64,000 nt of DNA, taken from positions 2,709,945 to 2,773,944 of the forward strand of contig OZ220464.1 in the NCBI GenBank assembly GCA_965115825.1. The letters are read 5' to 3'. Shown piece after piece: positions 51,522 to 64,000 of this stretch; within the stretch, counting starts at the first letter, position 1, and each line of letters opens with the position of its first letter. The position numbers and the translations under genes are program-made. The DNA is from Dehalococcoidia bacterium. GTDB lineage: Bacteria; Chloroflexota; Dehalococcoidia; Lucifugimonadales; UBA3495. Under the pieces are notes generated by a model. The model was given only the letters and a program-made list of their open reading frames with translations, searched no databases and was not told the DNA's origin.

Positions 51522-52733
51522 CTATCCGTTGAAGAAGCCTTCTTCCCGGAAAAGCTCGGCCAGGCGGCCTACTCCCTCGTGGATTTCTTCGGGGGAGTTG
51601 TGGCTGTAGGTAAGGCGCAGGTAGTTGTTGCGGCCCCGGTCGGAGCGGAACACGCCGCCGGGGTTGTACTTAACATCGCGGGCTACGGCTTTGGGGAGCG
51701 CGGCCCAAGTGTCGGCGTTTTCGGGCAGGCGGACGAAAATCAGCATACCGCCCTGGGGATGGGCCCATTCGCAGGATGAGGGGAAGTTGTGGGCCAGGGC
51801 TGCCAGCATTGCGTCGCGGCGGGCGGCCAAGGCGAGCCTGACTTCCTCGATGTGATCGGGCCCGCGCTGGCGCAGATATTCGTACACCAGCATGGTGGCC
51901 AGGTGGCTTACGCCGCGCCGGGGAGGTACGCCGCCGTTGACCTGACGCAATGCCTGACCTACGGCCGGGGGCATGACCCCGAACCCGACCCGCAATCCGC
52001 AGCCGAGCAGCTTGGTGAATGACGATACATAGATGACGTCGTCGCGGTGGGTGAGGCCGGAAAAGGCGGTAGGGAGAGCGGGGCCGTCAATGCGGAAGTC
52101 GGCGTAGGATTCGTTTTCCAGTATGGGGACGTCGTAGCGCTGAGCGACGTCGAGCAAGGCGCGCCGCCGGGGTTCGGGCACGGTAAATCCGAGGGGGTTC
52201 TGGTACACGGGGATCATCCAGACGAATTTGGGGCGGCGGCCGGCGTCGGTTAAGGAGCGCAGGGCGCTTTCCAGGGCGTCGGGGAGCATGCCGTGTTGGT
52301 CGCAGGCTACGTGGATGGGTTCGGCTCCGCGCTCGAGCATCATGCGGAGGCTGCCGAGGTAGGTGAATTCCTCTACCAGGATGGGGTCGCCGGGGTTGAC
52401 GAAGGCTTCCAGGATGATGCTGACGGCCCCGCCGGCGCCGTCGGATATGAAGACGTCATCGGGGGATGGCGCGAAACCTCTGTTGGCGGCGAGGCGGTTG
52501 GCGATGAGTTCCCGCAGGCCGATGTGTCCGCCGGGCGGGGGATAGGCGGCCAGGGAGTTGGGGCCGCCGGCGTCGAGTCCGGCGCGGACGGCGGTGAGGT
52601 ATTGGTCGAAGGCGATGACTTGGGGCACCGCGTTGGTGATGGAAAAGACGTATTTGGCGGGAGCGTCCGCGCCGTCCGGCATGGCTACGGGCCGGGGCAG
52701 GTTGCGGGAGAAGAGGGCTGAGTAATCTACCAT
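51522..52733 (-). CDS. PLP-dependent aminotransferase (class I/II, MocR/2-aminoadipate transaminase-like catalytic domain)
   Basis: YPPPGGHIGLRELIA, ENESYADF and the SSFTKLLGCGLRVGF lysine block. Confidence 0.85.
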   Translation of the reverse strand: MVDYSALFSRNLPRPVAMPDGADAPAKYVFSITNAVPQVIAFDQYLTAVRAGLDAGGPNSLAAYPPPGGHIGLRELIANRLAANRGFAPSPDDVFISDGAGGAVSIILEAFVNPGDPILVEEFTYLGSLRMMLERGAEPIHVACDQHGMLPDALESALRSLTDAGRRPKFVWMIPVYQNPLGFTVPEPRRRALLDVAQRYDVPILENESYADFRIDGPALPTAFSGLTHRDDVIYVSSFTKLLGCGLRVGFGVMPPAVGQALRQVNGGVPPRRGVSHLATMLVYEYLRQRGPDHIEEVRLALAARRDAMLAALAHNFPSSCEWAHPQGGMLIFVRLPENADTWAALPKAVARDVKYNPGGVFRSDRGRNNYLRLTYSHNSPEEIHEGVGRLAELFREEGFFNG

Positions 52734-52770
52734 TATCAGAGTCTCCGGGTTTGGCCGATTGTGGGTGAGA

Positions 52771-53970
52771 TTATACTTGGGTTTTGCGGCGGGCGGCTAC
52801 GCCTTCGCGGAGTCTGGGGATCAACTCGCGGCCGTAGTCGGCGGCGTCGGCGAGGGGGGCGAAACCCCGGATGATGAAGGCGGAGCAACCGAGGTCGTAG
52901 TAGGCGAGGAGGGAGTCCGCTACCTGCTGGGGGGAGCCCACGAGGCAGGTTGTGCTGCCGGAGGCGCCGCTGGCGGCGGCGATGGGCATCCACAGCCGCT
53001 CGTCGTGGATGCTGCCTTCGGCGGCGAAGCGCAGGAGACGCCAGGCGCCTTCCGATTGGGGACGGGTAGGCACGCCCGGGGAGATGCGGCCGGCGGTGGC
53101 CTGTTTGACGCGGGAGAGGATCTGCTCGGCGCGCTGCCAGGCTTTGGATTCGGTGTGGGCGATGATGGGGCGGACGGACAGGCTGAAGCGCATTTCATGG
53201 GGGTTGCGGCCGGCGGCGGCGACGCGGGCGCGCACGTCGGCGATGCGCTGGGCGATGGAGGCGCGGGGCTCGCCCCACAGGGCGAAGAGGTCGGCGCGAC
53301 GGCTGGCTACGTCGAGGGCGATGTTGGACGCGCCGCCGAAGAACAGGGGCAGGTGGGGGCTTTGACGGCAACGGGCCTGGCTGTAAGCGCCCTGCAATTG
53401 GTAGAATTCGCCGTGGTGGTCGAAGGGTTCGGTTTCGGTCCAGACGCGGCGCATGACGTGGAGGTATTCATCGGTGCGGCGATAGCGGGCGTCGTGGTCG
53501 AGCCAGTCGCCATCCTGACGCTGCTCGAGGTCGTTGCCGCCGGTGATGATGTGGAGGGCGATGCGGCCGTTGGTGAGCTGGTCGAGGGTAGCGGCCTTGC
53601 GGGCGGCGAGGGTGGGAGCGACGAAGCCGGGGCGATGGGCGATGAGGTAGGCGAGGCGTTTGGTGTGGGCGGCGGCGTAACCGGCGACTTCGAAGCCGTC
53701 GGGGGTTGAGGAGGAGTAGCCGGTGAGGACCAGATCGAAGCCGGCGGCTTCGTGGGTGCGGGCGAAGTCGAGGATGTAGTCGGGGTCGACGCCGGAGGGG
53801 ACTTCGGCGCCGGGGTTGATGCCGCCACCGAAGAGGCTGAGGGTTGCGCCGCGGTTGTCGGGGGCTTCTGGGACTACGCCAATCATTCCGATGACGGTAA
53901 GGCCGTCGGCGGAGTACACGCTGGGAACGGTTGGGGTCGGCGCGATGGCGCTGCTTTCAGCGTTGGACAT
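52771..53970 (-). CDS. LLM-class flavin-dependent monooxygenase (alkanesulfonate/dimethylsulfone monooxygenase-like)
   Basis: FARTHEAAGFDLVLTGYSSS, LIAHRPGFVAPTLAARKAATLDQLTNGRIALHIITGG. Confidence 0.85.
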   Translation of the reverse strand: MSNAESSAIAPTPTVPSVYSADGLTVIGMIGVVPEAPDNRGATLSLFGGGINPGAEVPSGVDPDYILDFARTHEAAGFDLVLTGYSSSTPDGFEVAGYAAAHTKRLAYLIAHRPGFVAPTLAARKAATLDQLTNGRIALHIITGGNDLEQRQDGDWLDHDARYRRTDEYLHVMRRVWTETEPFDHHGEFYQLQGAYSQARCRQSPHLPLFFGGASNIALDVASRRADLFALWGEPRASIAQRIADVRARVAAAGRNPHEMRFSLSVRPIIAHTESKAWQRAEQILSRVKQATAGRISPGVPTRPQSEGAWRLLRFAAEGSIHDERLWMPIAAASGASGSTTCLVGSPQQVADSLLAYYDLGCSAFIIRGFAPLADAADYGRELIPRLREGVAARRKTQV

Positions 53971-54087
53971 ATTGGGACAGCTCCTGATTTGGGATGCTTG
54001 GCCGGGCCAGTTTAGACGATTCGGGGTTGATGGGGATAGGGCGGGCGAATTGTCTGAAATTCGTTTGAAAATTGGGTGACGGGGGTA

Positions 54088-54116
54088 TTGACAAGCATCA
54101 TTGGACGCTATACTAT
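54088..54116 (+). promoter_or_regulatory. strong sigma-70-like promoter (consensus TTGACA; -10 TATACT at N15 or TACTAT at N17)
   Basis: TTGACA at 54088-54093, then TATACTAT at 54109-54116, in a short AT-rich patch. Confidence 0.55.
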
Positions 54117-54120
54117 GTAT

Positions 54121-54485
54121 TCAAGGCGCTGGGGTTGCAGGGAAACCCCGCCCGCCGGGATCCCGATGGCCAGAGAAGAGCCGTCGTCATTGCAGGAGGT
54201 TGAAGTGGTTTCGCTGATAACGCTGAACCATAGTTGGCATTTCCCCTGTAAGCGCCCCGTTGGCGGGGCCGATGCGGTATGACGATGCCGGGAGGACGCC
54301 AAGCGGGGCGAAAGCTAATCGGGTGGGCCATTGGTTGGCACTGACGATGCCAGACGCCCAGAGCAGCGCAGACGAGGCGCTCCCAGAGGGCGGGCACATC
54401 GGTCGTAAAGACCGACAGGCGGATGGCCGCAGCCGATGAGAAACGGAGCCAGCGCACCGACTGTTTATCGGGCGCTGGCTTTTCT
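54121..54485 (+). ncRNA. candidate ~365-nt structured RNA of unknown class, ending in an intrinsic terminator
   Basis: No credible ORF is present. Many local hairpins occur (GGGGTT-GCAGGGA-AACCCC; GCCCCG-TTGG-CGGGGC; CGGTC-GTAAA-GACCG; GGCA-CTGACGA-TGCC). A long-range pairing links CGTCGTCAT (54183) with ATGACGATG (54278). A 12-bp terminator hairpin at 54448-54479 is followed by TTTTCT. The strand is inferred from the promoter. Confidence 0.4.
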
Positions 54486-54564
54486 GGTGGGTCATTCTGA
54501 TGCTCTGACTGCGATTCCGGGGATTTAATTGTGGTTGCGTGGGAAAGGGGGGCATTGGGGGCGG

Positions 54565-55419
54565 CTATCGGGTTTGGTCGGGATGGGCGGCCAGCGCGGC
54601 CTGGTATTGCGCCGGCGTATTGATGTCGCAGAGCAGTTCCGGGGCGGCGAGTTCGACTCTTTGGGTTGTGGTTGGGCAGTTTTGGACGACGGCGCGGATG
54701 CCCTGGGTGGTTTCGGTTATGGCGAGGAGTTGCGGGTAGAGGGCGCGGCTGATGGCAATGGGGTGTCCGCCTTTGCCGTTGCAGGTGGGGATGGTAATCA
54801 GCGCGGCGGGGTTATTGAGGTGGGCGAGGAGCACTTGGCGGATGATGGCGGCGCTGCGGGGCTGGTCGACGTTGAGCAGCAGGATGGGGCCGGGCGGGAG
54901 GTGGGGAGGGTTGGAGATAGCGCGGAGGCCTGCTTTGATGGAGGTAGTTTTGCCCTGGGCGTAGTGGGGGTTGACGACACAGCGGACGCTGCCGGCCTGG
55001 TGAACATCGCGGTTGGCGCCGATGCGGGCCTGCAACTCGTCGGCTCGGTGTCCGAGGACTACGATGACTTCATCGGCGCCGGCCTGGCGCAGGGCGGTTA
55101 TCTGGTGGATGATGAGGGGGCGGCCGTGCCAGTCGAGGAGGGCTTTGAGGGATCCCATGCGCCGGGATACGCCGGCGGCGAGGAGGATGGCGGAGGTGTA
55201 TTGGGGATGGTGGATCGGAGGGTGGGTATGGGACGCGGAAGCCGGGGTAGGTTCCGCAGGTTGGCCGGGCGCGGGGTCGGGCCGGGCCGATGGGGGCTGC
55301 CGAGAGGAGGTTGCCGGGGGGCGCCGTTGGGATGACACGGGGATGTGGCTGTGGGGGTTATCGATTGGGAGGGATGGCAGGATGATGCGGATGCGGTGGG
55401 TAGTCGGGAGGGATGACAC
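54565..55419 (-). CDS. MobA-like NTP transferase (molybdenum cofactor cytidylyltransferase MocA-like) with a P-rich N-terminal extension
   Basis: AILLAAGVSRRMGSLKALLDWHGRPLI...VIVVLGH is the NTP_transf_3 N-terminus. The only in-frame start codons upstream of this block are GTG 55419 and GTG 55339, which gives a 60-87 aa P/S/H-rich extension. Confidence 0.75.
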   Translation of the reverse strand: MSSLPTTHRIRIILPSLPIDNPHSHIPVSSQRRPPATSSRQPPSARPDPAPGQPAEPTPASASHTHPPIHHPQYTSAILLAAGVSRRMGSLKALLDWHGRPLIIHQITALRQAGADEVIVVLGHRADELQARIGANRDVHQAGSVRCVVNPHYAQGKTTSIKAGLRAISNPPHLPPGPILLLNVDQPRSAAIIRQVLLAHLNNPAALITIPTCNGKGGHPIAISRALYPQLLAITETTQGIRAVVQNCPTTTQRVELAAPELLCDINTPAQYQAALAAHPDQTR

Positions 55420-55441
55420 GGGGATGCCGGTGTGGGGGTTA

Positions 55442-56578
55442 TCAGTCGGCGGTGAGGCCCATGGCGCGGTGGGCGCGGCGTTCGGCGCGTTCGAGGTACC
55501 AGTCGTCCATGGTCATGGGGCTGCCTTTGCCGCCGCGACGGGCCATGATGATTTCGGACATTATGCTTACGGCGAGTTCATCGGGTTCGAGGGCGCCGAT
55601 GTCGAGGCCGATGGGGGCGTGGACCTGGGCGAGGCGTTCTCGGGGTATGCCTTCTTGCAGCAGGCGTTGGTAAATCATGAGGGTTTTGCGTCGGCTGCCG
55701 AGCAAGCCGATGTAGCGGGCCCGGGTGGTCAGGGCGGATTCGAGGGCTACGTCGTCGAACCAGTGGCCGCGGGAGGCGATGACGATGAAGCTGTTGACGT
55801 TGATGTCCAGATGCTCGGCCCAGCCGGCGTAGGGGGTGACGATGGCGCTCTGGGCGTAAGGGAAGCGCTGGGGGTTGGAGAAGTCGGGTCGGTCGTCGAC
55901 GATATGGACGCGGTAGCCGAGGCGGTGGGCGAGGTCGGCGGTGGCTTTGCCGACGTGTCCGCCGCCGACCATTATGAGAGTTGGGGGGGTGGTGAATCCT
56001 TCGACGAAGAGCTCGGTGTGGTCGTCGATGGCGATGGATTCGTTGGCGCCGACGGCGGCGACGCGGCGACAGGCGTCGATGGCGATTTGGTCGAGTTGGG
56101 CTGTGCCGATGCTGCCGGTGATGGAGCCGTCGGAGCGTAGGAGGAGTTTGGCGCCGAGGGGGGAGGCGTCGGCGTCGGAGCGGACGATGGTGGCGAGGGC
56201 GGCGGGTTCGGCGCCGTCGTAGGCGTTGAGGAGTTCGTGTCCGATGTGGGAGAAATCGGCGGGGTTCCAGAGGGGATCCAAGTAGAAGTACATGGTGCCG
56301 CCGCAGACGAGGCCGTCGCGGGCGGCGATGTCTTCGTTGAGGTAGTAGTCTTTGAATTGCGGGCCGCCGTGGGAGCGGAGGATTTCGCGGGCGGCGAACC
56401 AGATGTCGCCTTCGACGCAGCCGCCGCCGAGAGTGCCGACGGCGCTGCCGTCCTGTCGCACGAGGAGCATGGCGCCGGCTTTTTGGGGAGTGGAGCCTTT
56501 GGTGCGAACTACGGTGGCCAGCACGCAGGGGCTGCCGGATTCCAGCTGGTTGACCGCTTCCTGAATTACGTCGCGCAC
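55442..56578 (-). CDS. XdhC/CoxI-family molybdoenzyme maturation protein
   Basis: N-terminal XdhC_CoxI block (CVLATVVRTKGSTPQKAGAMLLV..DGS..GTLGGGCVE) and Rossmann block (LIMVGGGHVGKATADLAHRLGYRVHIVDDR). Confidence 0.88.
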   Translation of the reverse strand: MRDVIQEAVNQLESGSPCVLATVVRTKGSTPQKAGAMLLVRQDGSAVGTLGGGCVEGDIWFAAREILRSHGGPQFKDYYLNEDIAARDGLVCGGTMYFYLDPLWNPADFSHIGHELLNAYDGAEPAALATIVRSDADASPLGAKLLLRSDGSITGSIGTAQLDQIAIDACRRVAAVGANESIAIDDHTELFVEGFTTPPTLIMVGGGHVGKATADLAHRLGYRVHIVDDRPDFSNPQRFPYAQSAIVTPYAGWAEHLDINVNSFIVIASRGHWFDDVALESALTTRARYIGLLGSRRKTLMIYQRLLQEGIPRERLAQVHAPIGLDIGALEPDELAVSIMSEIIMARRGGKGSPMTMDDWYLERAERRAHRAMGLTAD

Positions 56579-56648
56579 GCTGTCACCTGTTTGATGCCTG
56601 GTTGGGGTGGGTTGTTGGGGTTATTATACCTTGAAATGGGGTGGTGGT

Positions 56649-56956
56649 GGTTGTCTGAATCAGGATTTACCGGATTTTGGGATTTTCGGGATTGGGGGCC
56701 GGTTCCCGGAGTGGGGGCCGGCTTTCGGTGGGGTGACTTTGGGGTGGGTGTGGTTGTCAGAATCAGGATTTACTGGATTTTGGGATTTTCAGGATTGGGG
56801 CCGGCTCTCGGAGTGGGAGCCGGCTTGCGGAGGGGTGACTTTGGGGTGGGTGTGGTTGTCTGAATCAGGATTTACTGGATTTTAGGATTTTCGGGATTGG
56901 GGGCCGGCTCTCGGAGTGGGAGCCGGCTTTTCGGTGGGGTGACTTTGGGGTGGGCT
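56649..56956 (+). repeat. 3 tandem ~103-bp units, each starting with the dispersed core repeat
   Basis: Units start at 56649, 56752 and 56854 (GGTTGTC[TA]GAATCAGGATTTAC[CT]GGATTTTGGGATTTTCGGGATTGGGG...). They lie between the xdhC start and the 3' end of the 57016-57993 ORF. Confidence 0.9.
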
Positions 56957-57015
56957 CCGGGGTGATTGGTTGTGGGTCCGGAGCTTGGGGGTGGTGTTGG
57001 GTGTTGGGTGTTGGG

Positions 57016-57993
57016 TTAGATGCGGAGGGGTAGGGGGGTGGGTAGTTTGATGTGGAAGGTCTTTTCCAGGGCCCTCCGCCAGAGGGGGGAGAGGGTGATG
57101 AAGGCTGAGTTGGTGGTTATTTTGCGCGGCTTGGGGTGGCAGTAGCAGGGTACGGGTTCCTGGCGTAAGAACTCGTAGTGGCCGTGAGGGTCGGTTTTGG
57201 CGGCTAGTTCGTTGGGGAGGCGGAAGTGGCTGCGGATTTTGGCGAAGTTGGGTAGGCCGGTGATGTCGCGGACGGAGTAGAATGTGGGAGGGCTGATTTC
57301 GTGGGGTTTGCGGAGGTAGCGTTGGGTAGGTCGGACGGGTAGGGGTTGTCCGGCGATGATGGCGTTGGCGGCTTTGAGGAAGGCGGCGGCGCGACGGCGG
57401 AGGCGGGTCAGGGAAGTGAAGGTGTTGCGTTGGTGGTGGGTGTTGGCTTGGGTGTCGTTGATGTGGGTTACGTTTTGGCGGCGGTTGGTGTTGGCGTGGC
57501 TGGTGTCGTGGGCGGCGTCGATATGGGTGGCGTTCTGGCGGCGGTTGGTGTTGCCGTGGCTGGTGGCGTCGCTGTTTTGGCGGCGGCGGGTTTTCCCGTC
57601 GCTGTTGGCTTGGGTAGCGTCGATATGGGTGGTGTTTTGGCGGCGGCGGGTTTTCCCGTCGGTGTTGGTGTGGTTGTTGTGGTGTTTGGATTTGGGTAGG
57701 TGTGGGGAGTTGTAGATTTCGCGGAAGGTTTTGACGTGGGAGCGGCTGAGGTCTCCGTCTCTGACGTACCATCTGAGGGCGCCTTCCATTTGGCGGGGGG
57801 AGCGGTGCCAGAAGGGACGGTTTTCGGCCAGGGCCGTGGCGGAGTGGGATATGCAGCGGGCGATGGCCTGGATGGCGCGCTCGATGTTGCCTTCGGCGAT
57901 GTTGGTTTGGGCGTGTTTGAGGAACCGGTCGGCGCAGCTTTGGTGGCGCGCGATGGTTTCCGGGTCGATGGTATCCCGGTAGATGGTTTCCAT
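57016..57993 (-). CDS. hypothetical highly basic protein with an internal ~20-aa repeat region; coding strand strongly G-depleted
   Basis: AGGAGG lies 11 nt upstream of the ATG at 57993. The N-terminal ~95 aa (METIYRDTIDPETIARHQSCADRFLKHAQTNIAEGNIERAIQAIARCISHSATALAEN...) and C-terminal ~130 aa are non-repetitive and look helical/globular. The middle is (GKTRRRQN..THIDA)-type repeats. Caveat: stop codons are rare on this C/A-rich strand, so long ORFs can arise by chance. Confidence 0.45.
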   Translation of the reverse strand: METIYRDTIDPETIARHQSCADRFLKHAQTNIAEGNIERAIQAIARCISHSATALAENRPFWHRSPRQMEGALRWYVRDGDLSRSHVKTFREIYNSPHLPKSKHHNNHTNTDGKTRRRQNTTHIDATQANSDGKTRRRQNSDATSHGNTNRRQNATHIDAAHDTSHANTNRRQNVTHINDTQANTHHQRNTFTSLTRLRRRAAAFLKAANAIIAGQPLPVRPTQRYLRKPHEISPPTFYSVRDITGLPNFAKIRSHFRLPNELAAKTDPHGHYEFLRQEPVPCYCHPKPRKITTNSAFITLSPLWRRALEKTFHIKLPTPLPLRI

Positions 57994-58065
57994 TGGCTGG
58001 GTGGCCTCCTGGTTGGGTTGGTTGGTGTTTGGTGTTGTTGGTTTGGTTGGTTGGTTGGGGTTCGT

Positions 58066-58306
58066 GGGGGTTCAGGATGTCGGCGCTACGGTCTGAGAGC
58101 GTGGCTTGCTATTTACGTCCTAGTCTTGCGCGTGCTGACGGCTGCTTGGGCAGCGCTCGTCCTCGCGCAGCGGTGGTGACGCCCGCCGTGCTGGGTGCGC
58201 CAGCCGGGTAATGTGACCGACCTCCGGCGCACCTACAGTGGTGCAATGGATCCGACGTGCCGCAGAGTACTGGTTGCGGCGGTTTAGACCGTGTTATCCT
58301 GAACCC
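58066..58306 (-). ncRNA. ~240-nt highly structured element within the long 5' leader of the 57016-57993 ORF (unknown class)
   Basis: A perfect 12-bp closing helix joins GGGGTTCAGGAT (58067-58078) and ATCCTGAACCCC (58295-58306), extended by ACGGTCT/AGACCGT. Internal helices include GGTGCGCC...GGCGCACC, GCCGC...GCGGC and GCTGC-CCAA-GCAGC. It sits between the promoter at 58432-58460 and a C/A-rich linker plus SD. Confidence 0.45.
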
Positions 58307-58431
58307 CGTTGAACTCCTGTTTTAGCCTCCTGGCTGGATTTTGGTGTCGGGCTGGTGTCCTGGCCGGTGCACCGGGCTGGGACGGTATCCGGACGGTTCG
58401 CGAGGGGCCGTTGGATTAGCCTGACGGGGGT

Positions 58432-58460
58432 ATTATAGCGTACTGGCGTGCGTGGTGCAA
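58432..58460 (-). promoter_or_regulatory. near-consensus sigma-70-like promoter (TTGCAC-N17-TATAAT)
   Basis: On the minus strand, the -35 element is the reverse complement of 58455-58460 and the perfect TATAAT is the reverse complement of 58432-58437. It would start a transcript ~430 nt upstream of the ATG at 57993. Confidence 0.55.
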
Positions 58461-58466
58461 TAGGGG

Positions 58467-59000
58467 ATTGTCAGAATCAGGATTTACGGGATTTTAGGAT
58501 TTTCAGGATGGGGTTGTGGAGTGTTGCGGAGGGTGGGGTGTGGTGTTGGAGTGGGGGGTGGTGGTTGGGTTGGCGGGTTTGTTGGTGGGGGGATTGTCAG
58601 AATCAGGATTTACGGGATTTTGGGATTTTCGGGATGGGGTTGTGGGTGCGTTGCGGAGCGTGGGTTGCGGTGTTGGAGTGGGTGGATAGTGGTTGGGTTG
58701 GCGGGTTTGTTGGTGGGGGGGTTGTCAGAATCAGGATTTATGGGATTTTGGGATTTACAGGATGGGGTTGCGGGTTGTTTTGCGGAGCGTGGGTTGTGGT
58801 GTTGGAGTGGGGGGTGGTGGTTGGGTTGGCGGGTTTGTTGGTGGTGGGATTGTCAGAATCAGGATTTATGGGATTTTGGGATTTACAGGATGGGGTTGCG
58901 GGTTGTTTTGCGGAGCGTGGGTTGTGGTGTTGACGGGTTTGTTGGTGGTGGGATTGTCAGAAGCGGGATTTACGGGATTTTGGGATTTTCGGGATGGTGG
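58467..59000 (+). repeat. 4.5 tandem ~126-bp satellite units, each starting with the dispersed core repeat
   Basis: Units start at 58467, 58593, 58721, 58849 and 58953 (ATTGTCAGAATCAGGATTTACGGGATTTTGGGATTTTCGGGATGGGGTTG plus a G/T-rich remainder). Confidence 0.92.
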
Positions 59001-59114
59001 TCTGGTTAGGGAGAGGCGGTTCAGGATGGGGTTGTGGCGGGGAGGTGGTTGCGGAGGATGGGGGTGTGGGTGGTGACCGGTGGGAGGATTGGTTCGGGTT
59101 TGGGGAGCGGTGGC

Positions 59115-59503
59115 GGTGGCTCTGGGAGCGGGGGCGTTAGCACCCCTGCGCCCGCGGTCAGCGTCCTGGTAAGAGGGTGGCTCTGGGAGCGGTGGCGTTA
59201 GGCAGCGTCGCCGACAGCGCGCATGCCCGTAGAGTGGTGGCTCTGGGAGCGGGGGTTTTAGCGAATCGGTTTATTGATCGGCGCGGCGGAGTCTGTGGTG
59301 GCTCTGGGAGCGGGGGTTTTAGCCTTGTTCATAAACGGCGTTCCCGTAAGCAGCAGGATGGTGGCTCTGGGAGCGGGGGCGTTAGGAGTTGCGGGATGAT
59401 GCTGACTATCACATAGTGGGGGTGGCTCTGGGAGCTGGGGCGTTAGGCCCGCGTGGCGCGTCTTACCGAGGCTGAGATGGGGGTGGCTCTAGGGGGGCGT
59501 TAG
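59115..59503 (+). CRISPR. small orphan CRISPR-like array: 7 repeats (26 nt, consensus GGTGGCTCTGGGAGCGGGGGCGTTAG) and 6 unique spacers (34-37 nt)
   Basis: Repeats are at 59115, 59176, 59236, 59297, 59360, 59421 and 59482. The last is truncated to 22 nt and degenerate, so it is taken as the trailer end. Spacers are 35, 34, 35, 37, 35 and 35 nt and are mutually unrelated by eye. Several repeats carry 1-3 substitutions. No cas gene is recognisable in the window. Confidence 0.6.
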
Positions 59504-59584
59504 GATGGGGGTGGGGCGTGTTACACTAGACGCCAATTTTTGCTGTGGGCCGGCGGCTTTTGCGGGGCCCGAGAAGGCTTGGCT

Positions 59585-61657
59585 ATGGTTCCCCCTGATG
59601 ATTTTATTGGAGTGATGCCTGCTTGGGTCGGGGTGTATGGGCTGACTTTTGTCGTTCTTGCCGTGGCCGGCTGGGCGGTGTATTACCGCGTTTTCCGGTT
59701 GGTACTGCAAGGGACGTCGTCGGCCCGATTTGACCGTCCGTTGACGCGACTGGCGGGGGCGGTTGGCATAGTGCTGGGGCAGCGCAAGGTGCTGCAACGA
59801 GTGGGACGCACGGACCCGCGTTCTCGTCGCATTGACTTGGCCGGGATAGGGCACGCCGCTATTTTCTGGGGGTTCCTGTCTTTCAGCCTGTCCTATCTGA
59901 TTTTCATATTCGGGGGGGCGATCTGGCATCCTTTGGGGGAAACGATACTGACGAAAACCGGGGTATTGGCGTACAGCATCTACCTGGATATTCTGGCGGT
60001 AGTGGTGCTGGCGGCGCTGGCGTGGGCATTGTTCCGCCGCTGGGTGGCGCAGCCGCATCGTTTGAGCTTTGACCTGACTCGCAAGGGGGAGTCGGTGATA
60101 ATTGTGGGGCTGACGGCGGGATTGATGATAGCAACGCTGCTGACGCACGCCTGCTATGTGGCTGCCGGCGGGCAGGGGCCGGAGGCGGAGGTGATTATCG
60201 GCGGCGCGATTGGCGGATGGTTCACGGGTATGGGAATGTCGGCGGCTACGGCGTGGGCGCTGCACGGGGCGTTCTGGTGGATTCATCTGCTCATCATACT
60301 GGGTTTTGCGCTGTACATTCCGTTTTCCAAGCACATTCACATGGTGGCGGCGCCGGTTAACGCGTTTTTCCGGAACTTGGGGCCGCGGGGAGGGCTGGAA
60401 GTTCCGATTATTGACTTGGAAAGCATGGATGAAAACGCGCGGTTCGGGGCGTCGCGGGTGCAGGATTTTACCTGGCGGCAGCTGCTGGACGGGTATGCCT
60501 GCGCGGTGTGCGGACGGTGCACGGACGCCTGCCCGGCGAATGTTACGGGCAAGGTTTTGTCGCCCATGCATATTGTGGAGAATTTGAAGGAGCATATGAT
60601 AGCCATTGGGCACCAGGGGCCGCGGGACGCTACTCATGTGGAGCCGATGCCGCTGATTGACGGGGCGATACCGGAGCAGGCTATTTGGGACTGCGTGTCG
60701 TGCGGGGCGTGCATGGAGGAGTGTCCGGTGGTGGTGGAGCATATACCGACGATTATGGATATGCGGCGGAGTCTGACGCTGGAGGAATCGCGCATTCCGG
60801 AAACCGGGATGAATGCGTTGATCAGCATGGAGCAACGGGGCCATCCGTGGCGGGGCACGACGTTTGGGCGGACAGACTGGGCTGCGGGTCTGGATGTGCC
60901 CACGATTGCGGAGAAGCCCGACGCGGAGGTGCTGTTCTGGGTGGGATGCACCGCGGCGTTGGAGCAGAGGAGCCAGGGGATCGCGCGCTCGATGGTGAAG
61001 GTGCTCAAGTCGGCGGGGGTGGATTTTGCGATTCTGGGGGAGGAGGAGTCGTGCACGGGGGATCCGGCGCGGAGGATGGGCAATGAGTATCTGTACCAGA
61101 TGCTGGCGCAGCAGAATGTGGAGGTGATGAACAGGTACAACATCAAGACGGTGGTTACCATTTGCCCGCACTGTTTCAATACCATCCGCAACGAGTATCC
61201 GCAGTTTGGCGGGGACTATGAAGTGCTGCATTACAGCCAGTTTGTGGACGGGCTGATTAAGCAGGGTCGGGTCAAGCCGGTGAAGGTGATGGATGTGACG
61301 GTGGCGTACCATGATCCCTGCTTTTTGGGTCGGCACAACGGGGTTTATGATGAGCCGCGGAACGTGGCGCGTGCGGTTCCGGGTCTGCGGCTGGTGGAGA
61401 TGTCGCCGCGATGTCGGGAACGGAGTTTTTGCTGCGGCGCGGGGGGCGGCCATATGTGGATTGAGGAGAGTCAGGGTGAGCGCATCAACCACGTCCGCAC
61501 GGACCATTTTCTGGAGACCGGGGCCGACACGGTGGGGGTCTCCTGCCCATTCTGCCTACAGATGATGAATGAGGGCATCCAGTCCAAAGGGCAGGCGGAC
61601 AGCAAGGAAGCCCGGGACGTGCTGGAGTTTCTGGCGGACAGCCTGGGGGAGGACTGA
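59585..61657 (+). CDS. membrane-bound (Fe-S) oxidoreductase: NarI/DsrM-like heme-b membrane domain fused to an HdrD/DsrK-like domain
   Basis: The N-terminal ~260 aa has 5-6 hydrophobic helices. Two ferredoxin-type motifs follow (CAVCGRCTDACP; CVSCGACMEECP), then two CCG-type cysteine-rich domains (FWVGCTAA..., YHDPCFLGRH..., CCGAGGG). Confidence 0.85.
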   Translation: MVPPDDFIGVMPAWVGVYGLTFVVLAVAGWAVYYRVFRLVLQGTSSARFDRPLTRLAGAVGIVLGQRKVLQRVGRTDPRSRRIDLAGIGHAAIFWGFLSFSLSYLIFIFGGAIWHPLGETILTKTGVLAYSIYLDILAVVVLAALAWALFRRWVAQPHRLSFDLTRKGESVIIVGLTAGLMIATLLTHACYVAAGGQGPEAEVIIGGAIGGWFTGMGMSAATAWALHGAFWWIHLLIILGFALYIPFSKHIHMVAAPVNAFFRNLGPRGGLEVPIIDLESMDENARFGASRVQDFTWRQLLDGYACAVCGRCTDACPANVTGKVLSPMHIVENLKEHMIAIGHQGPRDATHVEPMPLIDGAIPEQAIWDCVSCGACMEECPVVVEHIPTIMDMRRSLTLEESRIPETGMNALISMEQRGHPWRGTTFGRTDWAAGLDVPTIAEKPDAEVLFWVGCTAALEQRSQGIARSMVKVLKSAGVDFAILGEEESCTGDPARRMGNEYLYQMLAQQNVEVMNRYNIKTVVTICPHCFNTIRNEYPQFGGDYEVLHYSQFVDGLIKQGRVKPVKVMDVTVAYHDPCFLGRHNGVYDEPRNVARAVPGLRLVEMSPRCRERSFCCGAGGGHMWIEESQGERINHVRTDHFLETGADTVGVSCPFCLQMMNEGIQSKGQADSKEARDVLEFLADSLGED

Positions 61658-61686
61658 CCAGGTGAGGGAGAGAGGCGGGCAGGATT

Positions 61687-62247
61687 ATGGCAGGGCAGCG
61701 CTCGGAACAATCTGAACAGACTGAATCGTTGTTCAACGTAACGCCGGCGCGACGGCGCGTTTATCTGGTATCGTTCGTTGCGTACAGCCTGATTGGTTAC
61801 GGAGTGGTAATATGGCATCATGCGTCCGATGGGGCAGCGGCGGTGAGTGGTGGGGACGGAGTTGCCAGTGTCAGCGCGGCGGCGATGGTTATGTCGGTTA
61901 TGCTGGGCTTTGCGATTGCCCATGCGGCGGCGCTGGGGTTGGCGTTGACAACGGCGGAAACGACGGGAGGAACTATGGTAATAGCAGATTGGCTGAGAGA
62001 GAAGTGGCTGATCCCTCTGCAAGAGCAGAGGCGGGCTGAGGGGAGAGCTGAGGGGAGAGCTGAGGGGAGGGCCGAGGGGCAGGCTGAGGGGAGAGCTGAG
62101 GGGAGGGCCGAGGGGCAGGCTGAGGGGAGGGCTGAAGGGCAGGCTGAGGCTAACCGCGCTTGGCGTGAGTGGAATCGTAGGCGCAGGGAGACGGAGGAGC
62201 GGGGTGAACGATTTGATGAGCCGGAGCCGTATGAGGATGATGAGTAG
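61687..62247 (+). CDS. small membrane-anchored protein with a (R/Q)AEG tetrapeptide repeat array and an acidic tail
   Basis: Hydrophobic N-terminal half, then GGTMVIADWLREKWLIPLQEQR. About 10 x 12-bp units (~62034-62148) encode RAEG/QAEG, followed by NRAWREWNRRRRETEERGERFDEPEPYEDDE. Confidence 0.55.
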   Translation: MAGQRSEQSEQTESLFNVTPARRRVYLVSFVAYSLIGYGVVIWHHASDGAAAVSGGDGVASVSAAAMVMSVMLGFAIAHAAALGLALTTAETTGGTMVIADWLREKWLIPLQEQRRAEGRAEGRAEGRAEGQAEGRAEGRAEGQAEGRAEGQAEANRAWREWNRRRRETEERGERFDEPEPYEDDE

Positions 62248-62410
62248 CAGTGGGTGGGAATGGGATGGGAGGGTGTCCGGTGTGCTGCTGGGGATTTTGG
62301 GACGCTTGCTGCTGTTTTGGCCTCAGGCGGGATGCGTAGGTGGGCTTGTGTGCGCCTTGCAGTTTAGGCTCGGCCGGGTTGTGTGGGCCGGCTGACTGAC
62401 TTGGGATGGA

Positions 62411-62671
62411 TTGGGCTTTGCGATTGCCCATGCGGCGGCGCTGGGGTTGGCGTTGACAACGGCGGAAACGACGGGAGGAACTATGGTAATAGCAGATTGG
62501 CTGAGAGAGAAGTGGCTGATCCCTCTGCAAGAGCAGAGGCGGGCTGAGGGGAGGGCTGAAGGGCAGGCTGAGGCTAACCGCGCTTGGCGTGAGTGGAATC
62601 GTCGGCGCAGGGAGGCGGAGGAGCGGGGTGAACGATTTGATGAGCCGGAGCCGTATGAGGATGAGGAGTAG
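62411..62671 (+). pseudogene. N-terminally truncated duplicate of 61687-62247 with only 3 tetrapeptide repeat units
   Basis: Near-identical to the 3' two-fifths of the upstream gene (GFAIAHAAALGLALTTAETTGGTMVIADWLREKWLIPLQEQRRAEGRAEGQAEANRAW...EDEE). The only start is TTG, and the first TM segments are missing. Confidence 0.5.
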
Positions 62672-62749
62672 CAGTGGGTGGGAACGGGAGGGGAGGGTGT
62701 CCGGTGTGCTGCTGGGGATTTTGGGACGCTTGCTGCTGTTTCGGCCTCA

Positions 62750-62977
62750 GGCGGGATGTGTTGGTGGGCTTGTGTGGGCTGTGTGGTTTAGGATGATGAC
62801 GGAGTTTTGGCTTTGGGCGGGATGTGTTGGTGGGCTTGTTGTGTGCGCTGTGCGGTTTAGGATGATGACGGAGTTTCGGCTTGGGCGGGATGTGTTGGTA
62901 GGCTTGTGTGGGCTGTGTGGTTTAGGATGATGACGGAGTTTCGGTCTCGGGCGGGATGCGTTGGTCGGCTGACTGAC
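62750..62977 (+). repeat. 3.4 tandem copies of a ~66-bp unit (GGCGGGATGTGTTGGTGGGCTTGTGTGGGCTGTGTGGTTTAGGATGATGACGGAGTTT...)
   Basis: Units start at 62750, 62816, 62884 and 62950. A single diverged copy lies at ~62326-62400 after the first gene copy. Confidence 0.88.
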
Positions 62978-63036
62978 GTTGTAGGACATTTGGGGATGTT
63001 GAGGGCTGCTTTGGATGTGTTGCTGGGGCTCTGAGG

Positions 63037-63822
63037 ATGTTGAGGGCTGTTTCGGTTATGCTGTTGGAGATTTTGGAGCGGCGGCTGCTGTTTCGGCCTC
63101 GGCCGGTTTGCGCGGGTAGGCCCACGGACTTGGACATGGATTATGAGGAGAGCTGGGCGGAGACCGGGGACGGTCGGCGGCTGCAATGCTGGTATATTCC
63201 CGGTGATACGCAGCCGGATTTGACATGGTTGTGGTTTGGCGGCGTCGGCGGCAACCTCAGCCTTCGCGTTGGCGAGTTTGCGGCGGTGCGTAAATATACG
63301 GGGGCCAGTATCCTGGGGTTTGACTACGGCGGATTTGGGAACAGCCTGGGCAAGGCGTCGGTGCAGAACACCGCGGTTGACGCGCGAACTGCCCTGGGAC
63401 ACCTGCAAGAGCGATACGGGGTCGAGCCGCAGCGCACCTTGTATTTGGGGGTTTCAATGGGAGCGGCGGTAGCGATTCGGCTGGCGTCGGAAGGGGTTTC
63501 GCCCGGTGGTGTGGCGCTGGTGGGGCCTTTTGCGTCGCTGCGGGATATGGCGCGGCGGCAGTATCCGGCTCTGACGCTGGGCGGCTGGATGGTAGGCAAC
63601 CGTTACGACTCGCTGGCTTATGTGGGGGGCATAGGCTGCCCGCTGCTGATACTGCATGGCACGGAGGACGCAACTGTGCCGGTGGGGCAGGCGCGCAAGC
63701 TCTATGCGGCGGCGGCGGATCCCAAGGAGTTTGCGGAAATCGCCGGCGCGGGGCACCTGGATATTGGCGAGGCGCCGGAGTTCTGGGATGCGCTGTGTCG
63801 GTGGATGGACGGTTATTCTTAA
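63037..63822 (+). CDS. alpha/beta-fold hydrolase (BEM46/ABHD13-like)
   Basis: N-terminal LERRLLFRPRP, nucleophile elbow GVSMGAA, and C-terminal ILHGTEDATVP...AGAGHLD. Confidence 0.85.
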   Translation: MLRAVSVMLLEILERRLLFRPRPVCAGRPTDLDMDYEESWAETGDGRRLQCWYIPGDTQPDLTWLWFGGVGGNLSLRVGEFAAVRKYTGASILGFDYGGFGNSLGKASVQNTAVDARTALGHLQERYGVEPQRTLYLGVSMGAAVAIRLASEGVSPGGVALVGPFASLRDMARRQYPALTLGGWMVGNRYDSLAYVGGIGCPLLILHGTEDATVPVGQARKLYAAAADPKEFAEIAGAGHLDIGEAPEFWDALCRWMDGYS

Positions 63823-64000
63823 TATGCAATGACATTGGATTTTGCCCACTGTCGCCAGCACAGCGGCGCTGCGCTCCTGCCGTACACTTTGGTACGCTGA
63901 TGCTGCCGCCATCGGCTCAACTGCTTACGCCGCGCCGAATGCAGTCTCTCTTCAGGTTGCCGCTCCTCGTTTGGTTGCCACGCTCGGGTATGCTGGCAAC

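Follow-up and report, generated by a model that had tools for sequence, protein, structure and literature searches.

The array examined here is a CRISPR-like locus of seven repeats and six spacers. It lies at positions 59115-59503 of a 64,000-nucleotide (nt) stretch of DNA (the window) from a Dehalococcoidia bacterium (contig OZ220464.1 of assembly GCA_965115825.1). The array is probably a leaderless "neo-CRISPR" locus, produced by off-target integration on the part of the type I-E system that resides elsewhere in the same genome, and probably yields no working guide RNAs. It has the architecture of a CRISPR array, and the CRISPR-associated (cas) loci of the genome are distant from it. Beyond the array, the genome contains an excess of isolated repeat-insert-repeat units with a period of 60-62 nt, one of which has an empty site in relatives, and inserts and type I-E spacers have targets in common. 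From these observations we infer that the array was born by an off-target process, in the order of events proposed below, and that it does not function in immunity. Coordinates are window positions unless they are marked as genome (G000) positions, the genome being a single contig of 3.27 Mb.

Architecture and composition of the array

The core repeat is G-rich and 26 nt long and is present on the forward (+) strand in six full copies and one shortened copy. Repeats 1 (59115..59140) and 5 (59360..59385) carry the consensus sequence. Repeat 2 (59176..59201) has G>T at repeat position 18, repeats 3 (59236..59261) and 4 (59297..59322) have CG>TT, and repeat 6 (59421..59446) has G>T at position 16; these are the variants that had been listed in an earlier reading made from the letters of the window alone (the sequence-only reading). 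Over the six full copies, 5 of 156 positions differ from the consensus, and the substitutions are all towards T. Repeat 7 (59482..59503) is 22 nt long, with an internal loss of 4 nt in the reference genome. The left flank also contains a partial repeat copy on the + strand (59103..59115), which equals positions 10-22 of repeat 2.

Measured from start to start, the spacings in the array are 61, 60, 61, 63, 61, and 61 nt; the period is thus 61 in four of the six units, 60 in one, and 63 in one (60 in another sample). The spacers, measured from core to core on the + strand, are 35 nt (spacer 1, 59141..59175), 34 nt (spacer 2, 59202..59235), 35 nt (spacer 3, 59262..59296), 37 nt in the reference genome (spacer 4, 59323..59359), 35 nt (spacer 5, 59386..59420), and 35 nt (spacer 6, 59447..59481). 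The arrangement of seven repeats around six spacers of 34-37 nt is therefore as first described, with the seventh copy cut to 22 nt.

This pattern is far from chance. When up to two mismatches were allowed, the repeat was found six times in the 3.27-Mb genome, every time inside the array, and a reversed control was found nowhere. Spacers 1-5 were unique in the genome by BLAST, with best non-self matches of 12-19 nt, and none of them has a stretch of more than 7 nt in common with another; the bounds of spacer 6, 59447-59481, were read from the sequence. Diverged copies of one another, which would have marked the locus as a minisatellite, are thus not what these five spacers are. The composition of the spacers is foreign-like as well: GC skew is 0.11 for the six spacers together, compared to 0.58 for the repeat, 0.73 for the left flank, and 0.33 for the right flank, while the spacers of the resident large arrays have skews of 0.02 (type I-E) and 0.06 (type I-C). 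The sequence-only reading had described the spacers as unrelated to one another and to the flanks.

It is also important to consider that the array may not be related to CRISPR at all, being instead a minisatellite or serial binding sites for a protein upstream of the promoter of the neighboring iron-sulfur (Fe-S) oxidoreductase gene. The surrounding region is rich in G-rich satellites, the repeat is G-rich like its flanks, and the array ends 15 nt before the conserved promoter of that gene. However, a minisatellite would be expected to diverge evenly along its unit, whereas here the repeats differ at only the few positions noted above and the spacers share nothing. The foreign-like composition of the spacers, the homology of spacer 5 to genuine spacers (discussed below), and the fact that 29 relatives lack the array upstream of this gene, as do the contigs of a closer relative, also argue against such an origin, which we consider very improbable.

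By a generic definition, CRISPR arrays have at least three near-identical repeats of 23-47 nt, unique spacers of similar length, adjacent cas genes, and an AT-rich leader. Repeats and spacers of this kind are present at 59115-59503, and the other two elements are not. Pfam models identified no cas gene among 28 open reading frames (ORFs) at 40322-63835, and genome-wide searches for Cas1 and Cas2 placed none in the window, in agreement with the earlier description of the array as an orphan. The left flank is G-rich, and a consensus scan of the flanks revealed no promoter-like site on either strand. The unit length, 61 nt, is not divisible by three, and the ORFs that run over the array matched no Pfam family.

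Orphan arrays, with no adjacent cas genes, are common in the output of array finders. The array resembles them in its lack of cas genes within the window, in its small size, and in some degeneration of its repeats. Typical orphan arrays, however, have a repeat of a recognizable cas-associated family, whereas the repeat described here matches no Rfam family and no other genome searched.

Resident type I-E machinery and isolated units across the genome

Genome searches for cas genes, which the sequence-only reading had called for, identified two CRISPR-Cas systems, both distant from the array. The type I-E system is complete (cas3, cse1, cse2, cas7, cas5, cas6e, cas1e, and cas2e; G000 ~1701346-1710383) and lies ~1.06 Mb away. 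Its cas1e (282 bits) and cas2e (95 bits) are beside an array of 338 repeats of 28 nt, in which 332 of the 337 spacers are 33 nt long. The type I-C system (cas3, cas8c, cas7c, cas4, cas1c, and cas2; G000 ~3145981-3153676) includes the nearest cas genes, at a distance of ~384 kb, and has an array of 115 repeats of 37 nt (Rfam CRISPR-DR9) with spacers of 34-40 nt and a period of 71-77. These are the only two Cas1 loci in the genome, and the repeat of the array at 59115 matches the repeat of neither system. A small array with the canonical I-E repeat is located at G000 3165281. Genome-wide searches for a TnpB/Cas12f zinc ribbon, Cas10, and generic Cas6 found none. A Cas9 model hit the HNH part of four ORFs of ~470-505 residues (G000 553445, 637936, 1252034, and 3237604); the two that were scanned with Pfam are fusions of a DNA methylase with HNH, and no Cas9 was identified.

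The array has several features in common with the resident I-E array, namely, the 61-nt unit, the GGT at the start of the repeat, the GCGGGG in its 3' half, and spacer starts that are biased towards C or G. In the array repeat the GCGGGG is followed by six bases, and in the I-E repeat it is followed by seven. The stem motif of the I-E repeat, CCCCGC, is also present in the array repeat, where it is exact and at the canonical offset. Overall similarity between the two repeats is marginal (p ~0.02), as were all repeat-to-repeat alignments (p 0.01-0.06). Among 332 I-E spacers, the first base is C in 160, G in 96, T in 64, and A in 12 (C or G in 256 of 332). The six spacers of the array begin with C, G, C, C, G, and G on the + strand, and on the - strand three of the six would begin with A. 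Because these first bases fit the I-E bias on the forward strand and not on the opposite one, we take the forward strand to be the + strand. The left-to-right polarity proposed earlier is supported by this bias, but the argument originally given for it, that a shortened last repeat marks the trailer end, does not hold, as a second sample of this species has the last repeat at full length.

There are also clear differences from the I-E array. The fold of the array repeat is weak, at -7.5 kcal/mol (z -1.0) on the + strand and -3.6 kcal/mol on the - strand, compared to -15.4 kcal/mol for the I-E repeat and -16.4 kcal/mol for the I-C repeat. The 3' end of the array repeat resembles neither the I-E nor the I-C handle, and the AT-rich leader is lacking. 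Because the repeat has neither a strong hairpin nor either of these handles, transcripts of the array, if any are made, are probably left unprocessed or unloaded. Judging from these sequence features, the array would document off-target adaptation and would not serve as a functioning immune memory.

Because the 61-nt unit of the array equals the I-E unit (28 + 33), the whole genome was scanned for comparable repeat pairs. After masking known arrays, we collected non-tandem direct-repeat pairs that were identical over a run of 20-40 nt, occurred in few copies in the genome, and enclosed an insert without periodicity. There were 6 pairs with a period of 60, 16 with a period of 61, and 4 with a period of 62 (26 in total), compared to 17 in total at all remaining periods from 40 to 100 (58 periods). 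Periods typical of I-C units accounted for 2 pairs at 72 and 1 at 73, with no peak near 73. The typical isolated unit is a 28-29-nt duplicate around an insert of 32-33 nt (examples are at G000 64059, 159293, 384396, 463638, 1017732, 1222933, 2070329, 2608092, and 2608970). Multi-unit sites have three or four repeats of exactly 28 nt, with spacers of 33, 32, and 33 nt. One of the 26 units is inside the window, at 1159-1249, where two copies of a G-rich 30-nt sequence enclose an insert of 31 nt that is C-rich (period, 61).

Several properties tie these units to the I-E system. The inserts have a GC skew of 0.04, and 2 of the 26 coincide with spacers in the large I-E array (18/18 and 21/23 nt; the maximum for shuffled spacers was 15). 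CCCCGC, with at most one mismatch and starting 3-9 from one end, occurs in 19 of 28 unit repeats, versus 455 of 3000 random genomic 28-mers. For the unit at G000 1222933, two relatives (G003 and G057) have a single copy and are without 63 and 67 alignment columns, respectively, which makes this a clean empty site in both. Taken together, these results show that off-target type I-E integration has been frequent in this lineage.

Two larger loci were also noted. Array A (G000 1667303-1667880) and array B (G000 2438364-2438880) are orphan arrays of 9-10 repeats, each with its own 28-nt repeat and with spacers of 33 nt. Their repeats have a weak hairpin or none and are absent from 53 other genomes of the genus. 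Array B has two spacers similar to ones in the large I-E array.

How might the array at 59115 have formed? In the mechanism that we favor, the resident I-E Cas1-Cas2 would repeatedly have inserted captured 33-nt fragments at a G-rich native site resembling one part of the I-E repeat, with the GGT start and with GCGGGG followed by 6-7 nt. Every insertion would duplicate ~28 base pairs (bp) of the site, and the register of the cut would slide by up to 2 nt between events. Because the register slides, only the 26-nt core would be common to all copies, and the core-to-core distance would be 33 + 2 = 35 nt. The insertions would be non-polar, with left, internal, and right copies being hit; because insertion into an internal copy would duplicate its variant, CG>TT would come to be present in two adjacent internal repeats. 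Identity over 28 nt is confined to repeat pairs 3/4 (with GT on the left), 6/7 (with TGGG on the left), and 5/7 (with GA on the right). Spacer 2, which begins with a G matching the base after what would then have been the right-hand copy, may be read as one duplicated G plus a 33-nt insert, and spacer 3 as a 33-nt insert plus the GT of a 28-bp duplicate. Of the features expected of a neo-CRISPR locus, three are found here: a resident I-E Cas1-Cas2, a site that mimics the native repeat, and the same process elsewhere in the genome.

In Escherichia coli, off-target integration by the type I-E Cas1-Cas2 spawns new arrays, which is reported mainly in cells overproducing Cas1-Cas2 (Nivala et al. 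2018, cited in 10.1101/148544, PMC6698737, and PMC7054753). The array is like the E. coli neo-CRISPR loci in having a resident I-E integrase, a unit length that in four of the six units equals repeat plus spacer of that system, and a site that resembles the native repeat, and its genome adds to the likeness with many further single units, including one for which relatives show the empty site. It is unlike them in being natural rather than induced by overexpression, in having six spacers, and in its core of 26 nt rather than 28.

Spacer 5 and competing origins

Two genuine spacers, one in array A and one in the I-C array, are homologs of spacer 5. The array A spacer is matched at 22 of 26 nt (score 18); the maximum over 150 shuffles was 15, and a score of 18 was attained by 2 of 150 random genomic 35-mers. 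This array A spacer also agrees with the I-C spacer at 21 of 25 nt. Spacer 5 in turn matches that 35-nt I-C spacer at 21 of 35 positions over the full length, with start, end, and polarity equal, which is the best among 34,200 comparisons, the next best being 20. One-frame peptides of the three spacers look related (HYVIVSIIPQL, VVSIIPQHDS, and QDEVVAILPEH), and a host gene for a protein of 1155 residues contains a 16-nt exact match to spacer 5 and reads DIVIVSIAQ there. We place weight on the three-way consistency because 21/35 alone is barely the best match and because a peptide-level comparison of the six array spacers with all resident spacers gave a result no better than shuffles (34 observed; null mean, 30.9; null maximum, 40). 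The sequence evidence that spacer 5 derives from the same mobile-element gene pool as genuine spacers is good, although not conclusive.

The 1155-residue ORF (G000 1661910-1665377, minus strand) has an NPPF methyltransferase-type motif and no Pfam or NCBIfam match, and shares homology with the gene family that spacers in three arrays target. Protospacer searches in large collections were made with spacer 5 only. A 21-nt consensus derived from spacer 5 and its array A homolog had no matches in viral and genome contigs, and a codon-degenerate pattern match in an AT-rich viral contig was out of frame and was rejected.

Alternatively, the resident I-C module (Cas1c-Cas2-Cas4) may have inserted the spacers at a non-cognate 26-bp repeat. 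The array is like the I-C array in its range of spacer lengths, with core-to-core spacers of 34-37 nt inside the I-C range of 34-40, and in having one spacer in register on a homologous target, and the I-C locus is also the nearer of the two. However, the 21/35 match that places spacer 5 in register is barely above the next best, and the duplicate is 26-28 bp rather than 37. The repeat differs from that of I-C in length and sequence, DR9 matches the I-C repeat only, and the period is 60-63 versus 71-77. In addition, the genome has no excess of units near a period of 73, and the first-base bias and the CCCCGC motif indicate I-E. Insertion by the I-C module is, in our judgment, decidedly unlikely.

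Another explanation invokes a third CRISPR-Cas system, with repeats of 26 nt and spacers of ~35 nt, the cas genes of which are gone; the array would be what is left of it as an orphan, or a fragment of it gained by horizontal transfer. This would fit the exactly 26 nt that are common to the seven copies, as well as spacers of 34-37 nt, and slow decay on this strand predicts repeat substitutions that are all towards T. As there are only two Cas1 loci in the genome, such a system would have to have been lost. On the other hand, the array repeat was never found as an array in 53 genomes of the genus or in collections of the family, species genomes, or metagenomes. It is absent from 40 genus relatives, a BLAST comparison of the array with 150 family genomes yielded weak single matches only, and exact-core scans gave only single chance matches, at 4 loci in genome contigs and 8 in metagenome contigs; as the collection scans demanded the exact core, diverged relatives of the repeat would escape them. 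Nor does the genome contain a further array with this repeat. Also, the period is that of the resident I-E unit, 26 further units of I-E size occupy unrelated sites in the genome, and the target that spacer 5 has in common with resident arrays points to acquisition within the lineage. A relic of a third system thus seems unlikely.

Three origins had been put forward by the sequence-only reading: a decaying remnant, an array served in trans by a distant cas locus, and an array used by a non-canonical partner. Given the 26 further I-E-sized units, birth at a non-CRISPR site is more probable than decay of a system since lost. Service in trans comes nearest of the three, although it holds for the insertion of spacers only. 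The third is taken up with the neighborhood below.

Some other candidate matches were set aside. A look-alike of the repeat in an antitoxin promoter of G057 (27/30 nt by BLAST; 22/25 within the repeat by eye) was judged to be a chance match. Derivation of the repeat from dispersed satellites was rejected, the best other match in the genome (20/26) being equal to that of the reversed control. Rfam gave no match to the array at E values up to 1, which says little because the I-E repeats matched no Rfam family either.

Several points weigh against off-target I-E integration as the origin of the array. The core common to the copies is 26 nt and not 28; the account of a shifting register is post hoc, and by a rough estimate the chance of such flank sharing is about 1-2%. 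Spacer 1, the sole unit that the 28 + 33 register model would leave unexplained, can be placed in a register only if the left flank was remodeled afterwards; the partial copy at 59103-59115 suggests a later deletion there. No single-copy proto-repeat was found at the orthologous intergenic site between pyrG and the Fe-S oxidoreductase gene when the left flank and repeat were compared to G003, G006, and G057, where matches did not exceed those of shuffles (G003 has a GCGTTAG about as far from the promoter, but so short a match carries no weight). The core-to-core spacers are also within the I-C range, and the start and end of spacer 5 coincide with those of the homologous 35-nt I-C spacer. Of four units tested for an empty site, one was informative; for the remaining three, the relatives align on one flank only or have other DNA between the flanks. 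Finally, no protospacer turned up for any spacer in the searches made, which covered BLAST of the array against phage records (matches only at E values of at least 2) and, for spacer 5, viral and genome contigs.

Genomic setting, relatives, and implications

To the right of the array is the Fe-S/CCG oxidoreductase gene (59585-61657), which was matched in all 40 genus relatives searched. Its extended -10 element (TGT TACACT; 59519..59527, + strand) is conserved in the upstream sequences of 29 genus relatives. To the left of the array there follow, in order, a 128-nt satellite, a minus-strand ORF (57016-57993) with a long leader, a 102-nt satellite, and xdhC. The period of the first satellite had been given as 126 and is in fact 128 nt by Tandem Repeats Finder (58463-58932). 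Its repeat family extends to ~59040-59075, and the satellite ends ~39 nt before repeat 1.

Satellite, ORF, leader, and 128-nt satellite make up an element of ~2.4 kb (56637..59075, minus strand) that is present in 11 copies; the ten other genomic copies of the ORF have 70-87% protein identity. Because homology among the 11 copies ends at ~59075, the array is outside the element. The ORFs of the element are 325-420 residues long and have an internal repeat of the NSDGKTRRRQN type, and the flanking G-rich satellites have a GGATTT-periodic motif. The minus-strand leader is ~400 nt long (58060-58440), running from a TATAAT-like box at ~58431 to the ORF start at 57993.

The ORF at 57016-57993 had been named as the only nearby candidate for a non-canonical partner of the array. 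Adjacency would favor this, and the ORF has a ribosome-binding site, the long leader, and a weak HEPN-like N-terminal signal (0.76-0.80, a lead only). However, it is one of 11 genomic copies, the homology of which ends before the array, and the other copies are without the array repeat, which is nowhere else in the genome. We consider it extremely improbable that the array works with this ORF.

In G057 and G003 the oxidoreductase gene is back to back with pyrG, with ~160 nt between the two in G057. In the genome studied here, pyrG is at G000 358464, beside another copy of the element, and its own half of the old intergenic DNA is retained there. The old spacer between pyrG and the Fe-S oxidoreductase gene is where the element and the array are located; it would later have been split by rearrangement between element copies. 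GC skew is very strong at 52000-64000 (0.28-0.42 per 2-kb window), across genes of both strands.

The array is polymorphic and lineage-specific, as seen in contigs from one study, in which full alleles are not separable. In the second sample of the same species (X2), where the last repeat is full-length, spacer 4 is 34 nt long; 3 nt are missing at 59349 inside a AGCAGCAG run, and there is a C>G change at 59336. One X2 contig has the shorter spacer 4 and a repeat, followed by the start of spacer 1. Another joins the partial copy at 59103-59115 to repeat 2, a jump of 82 nt by which repeat 1 and spacer 1 are lost. A related organism (X3), 90-95% identical within the gene, has contigs that align solely to the right of 59503-59506; to the left of this point they have G-rich non-array DNA. 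The array is likewise missing upstream of the Fe-S oxidoreductase gene in the 29 relatives, where homology starts at ~59504-59510, right after the array.

Off-target integration by the I-E system is the origin that we favor for the array, and the main interest is in the genome-wide picture rather than in the single array. To our knowledge, only a few putative cases of natural arrays from off-target integration exist. We would give an even chance to the view that this genome is a natural nursery, in which the I-E integrase seeded two dozen or more repeat-spacer units at half-repeat mimics and a few of these grew, leaderless, by non-polar insertions in a sliding register (the array at 59115 and perhaps arrays A and B). 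There is also a warning for annotation, in that small arrays with odd repeats are no evidence for unknown CRISPR types or partners. If the nursery view is true, the birth of CRISPR arrays has been caught at several stages in one wild genome. With ~25 isolated units, several arrays of multiple units, and at least one empty site that can be verified, this wild marine Chloroflexota genome would provide natural material on the origin of arrays, and the same material bears on the sequence features that attract the integrase and on the cost of promiscuous adaptation to the host.

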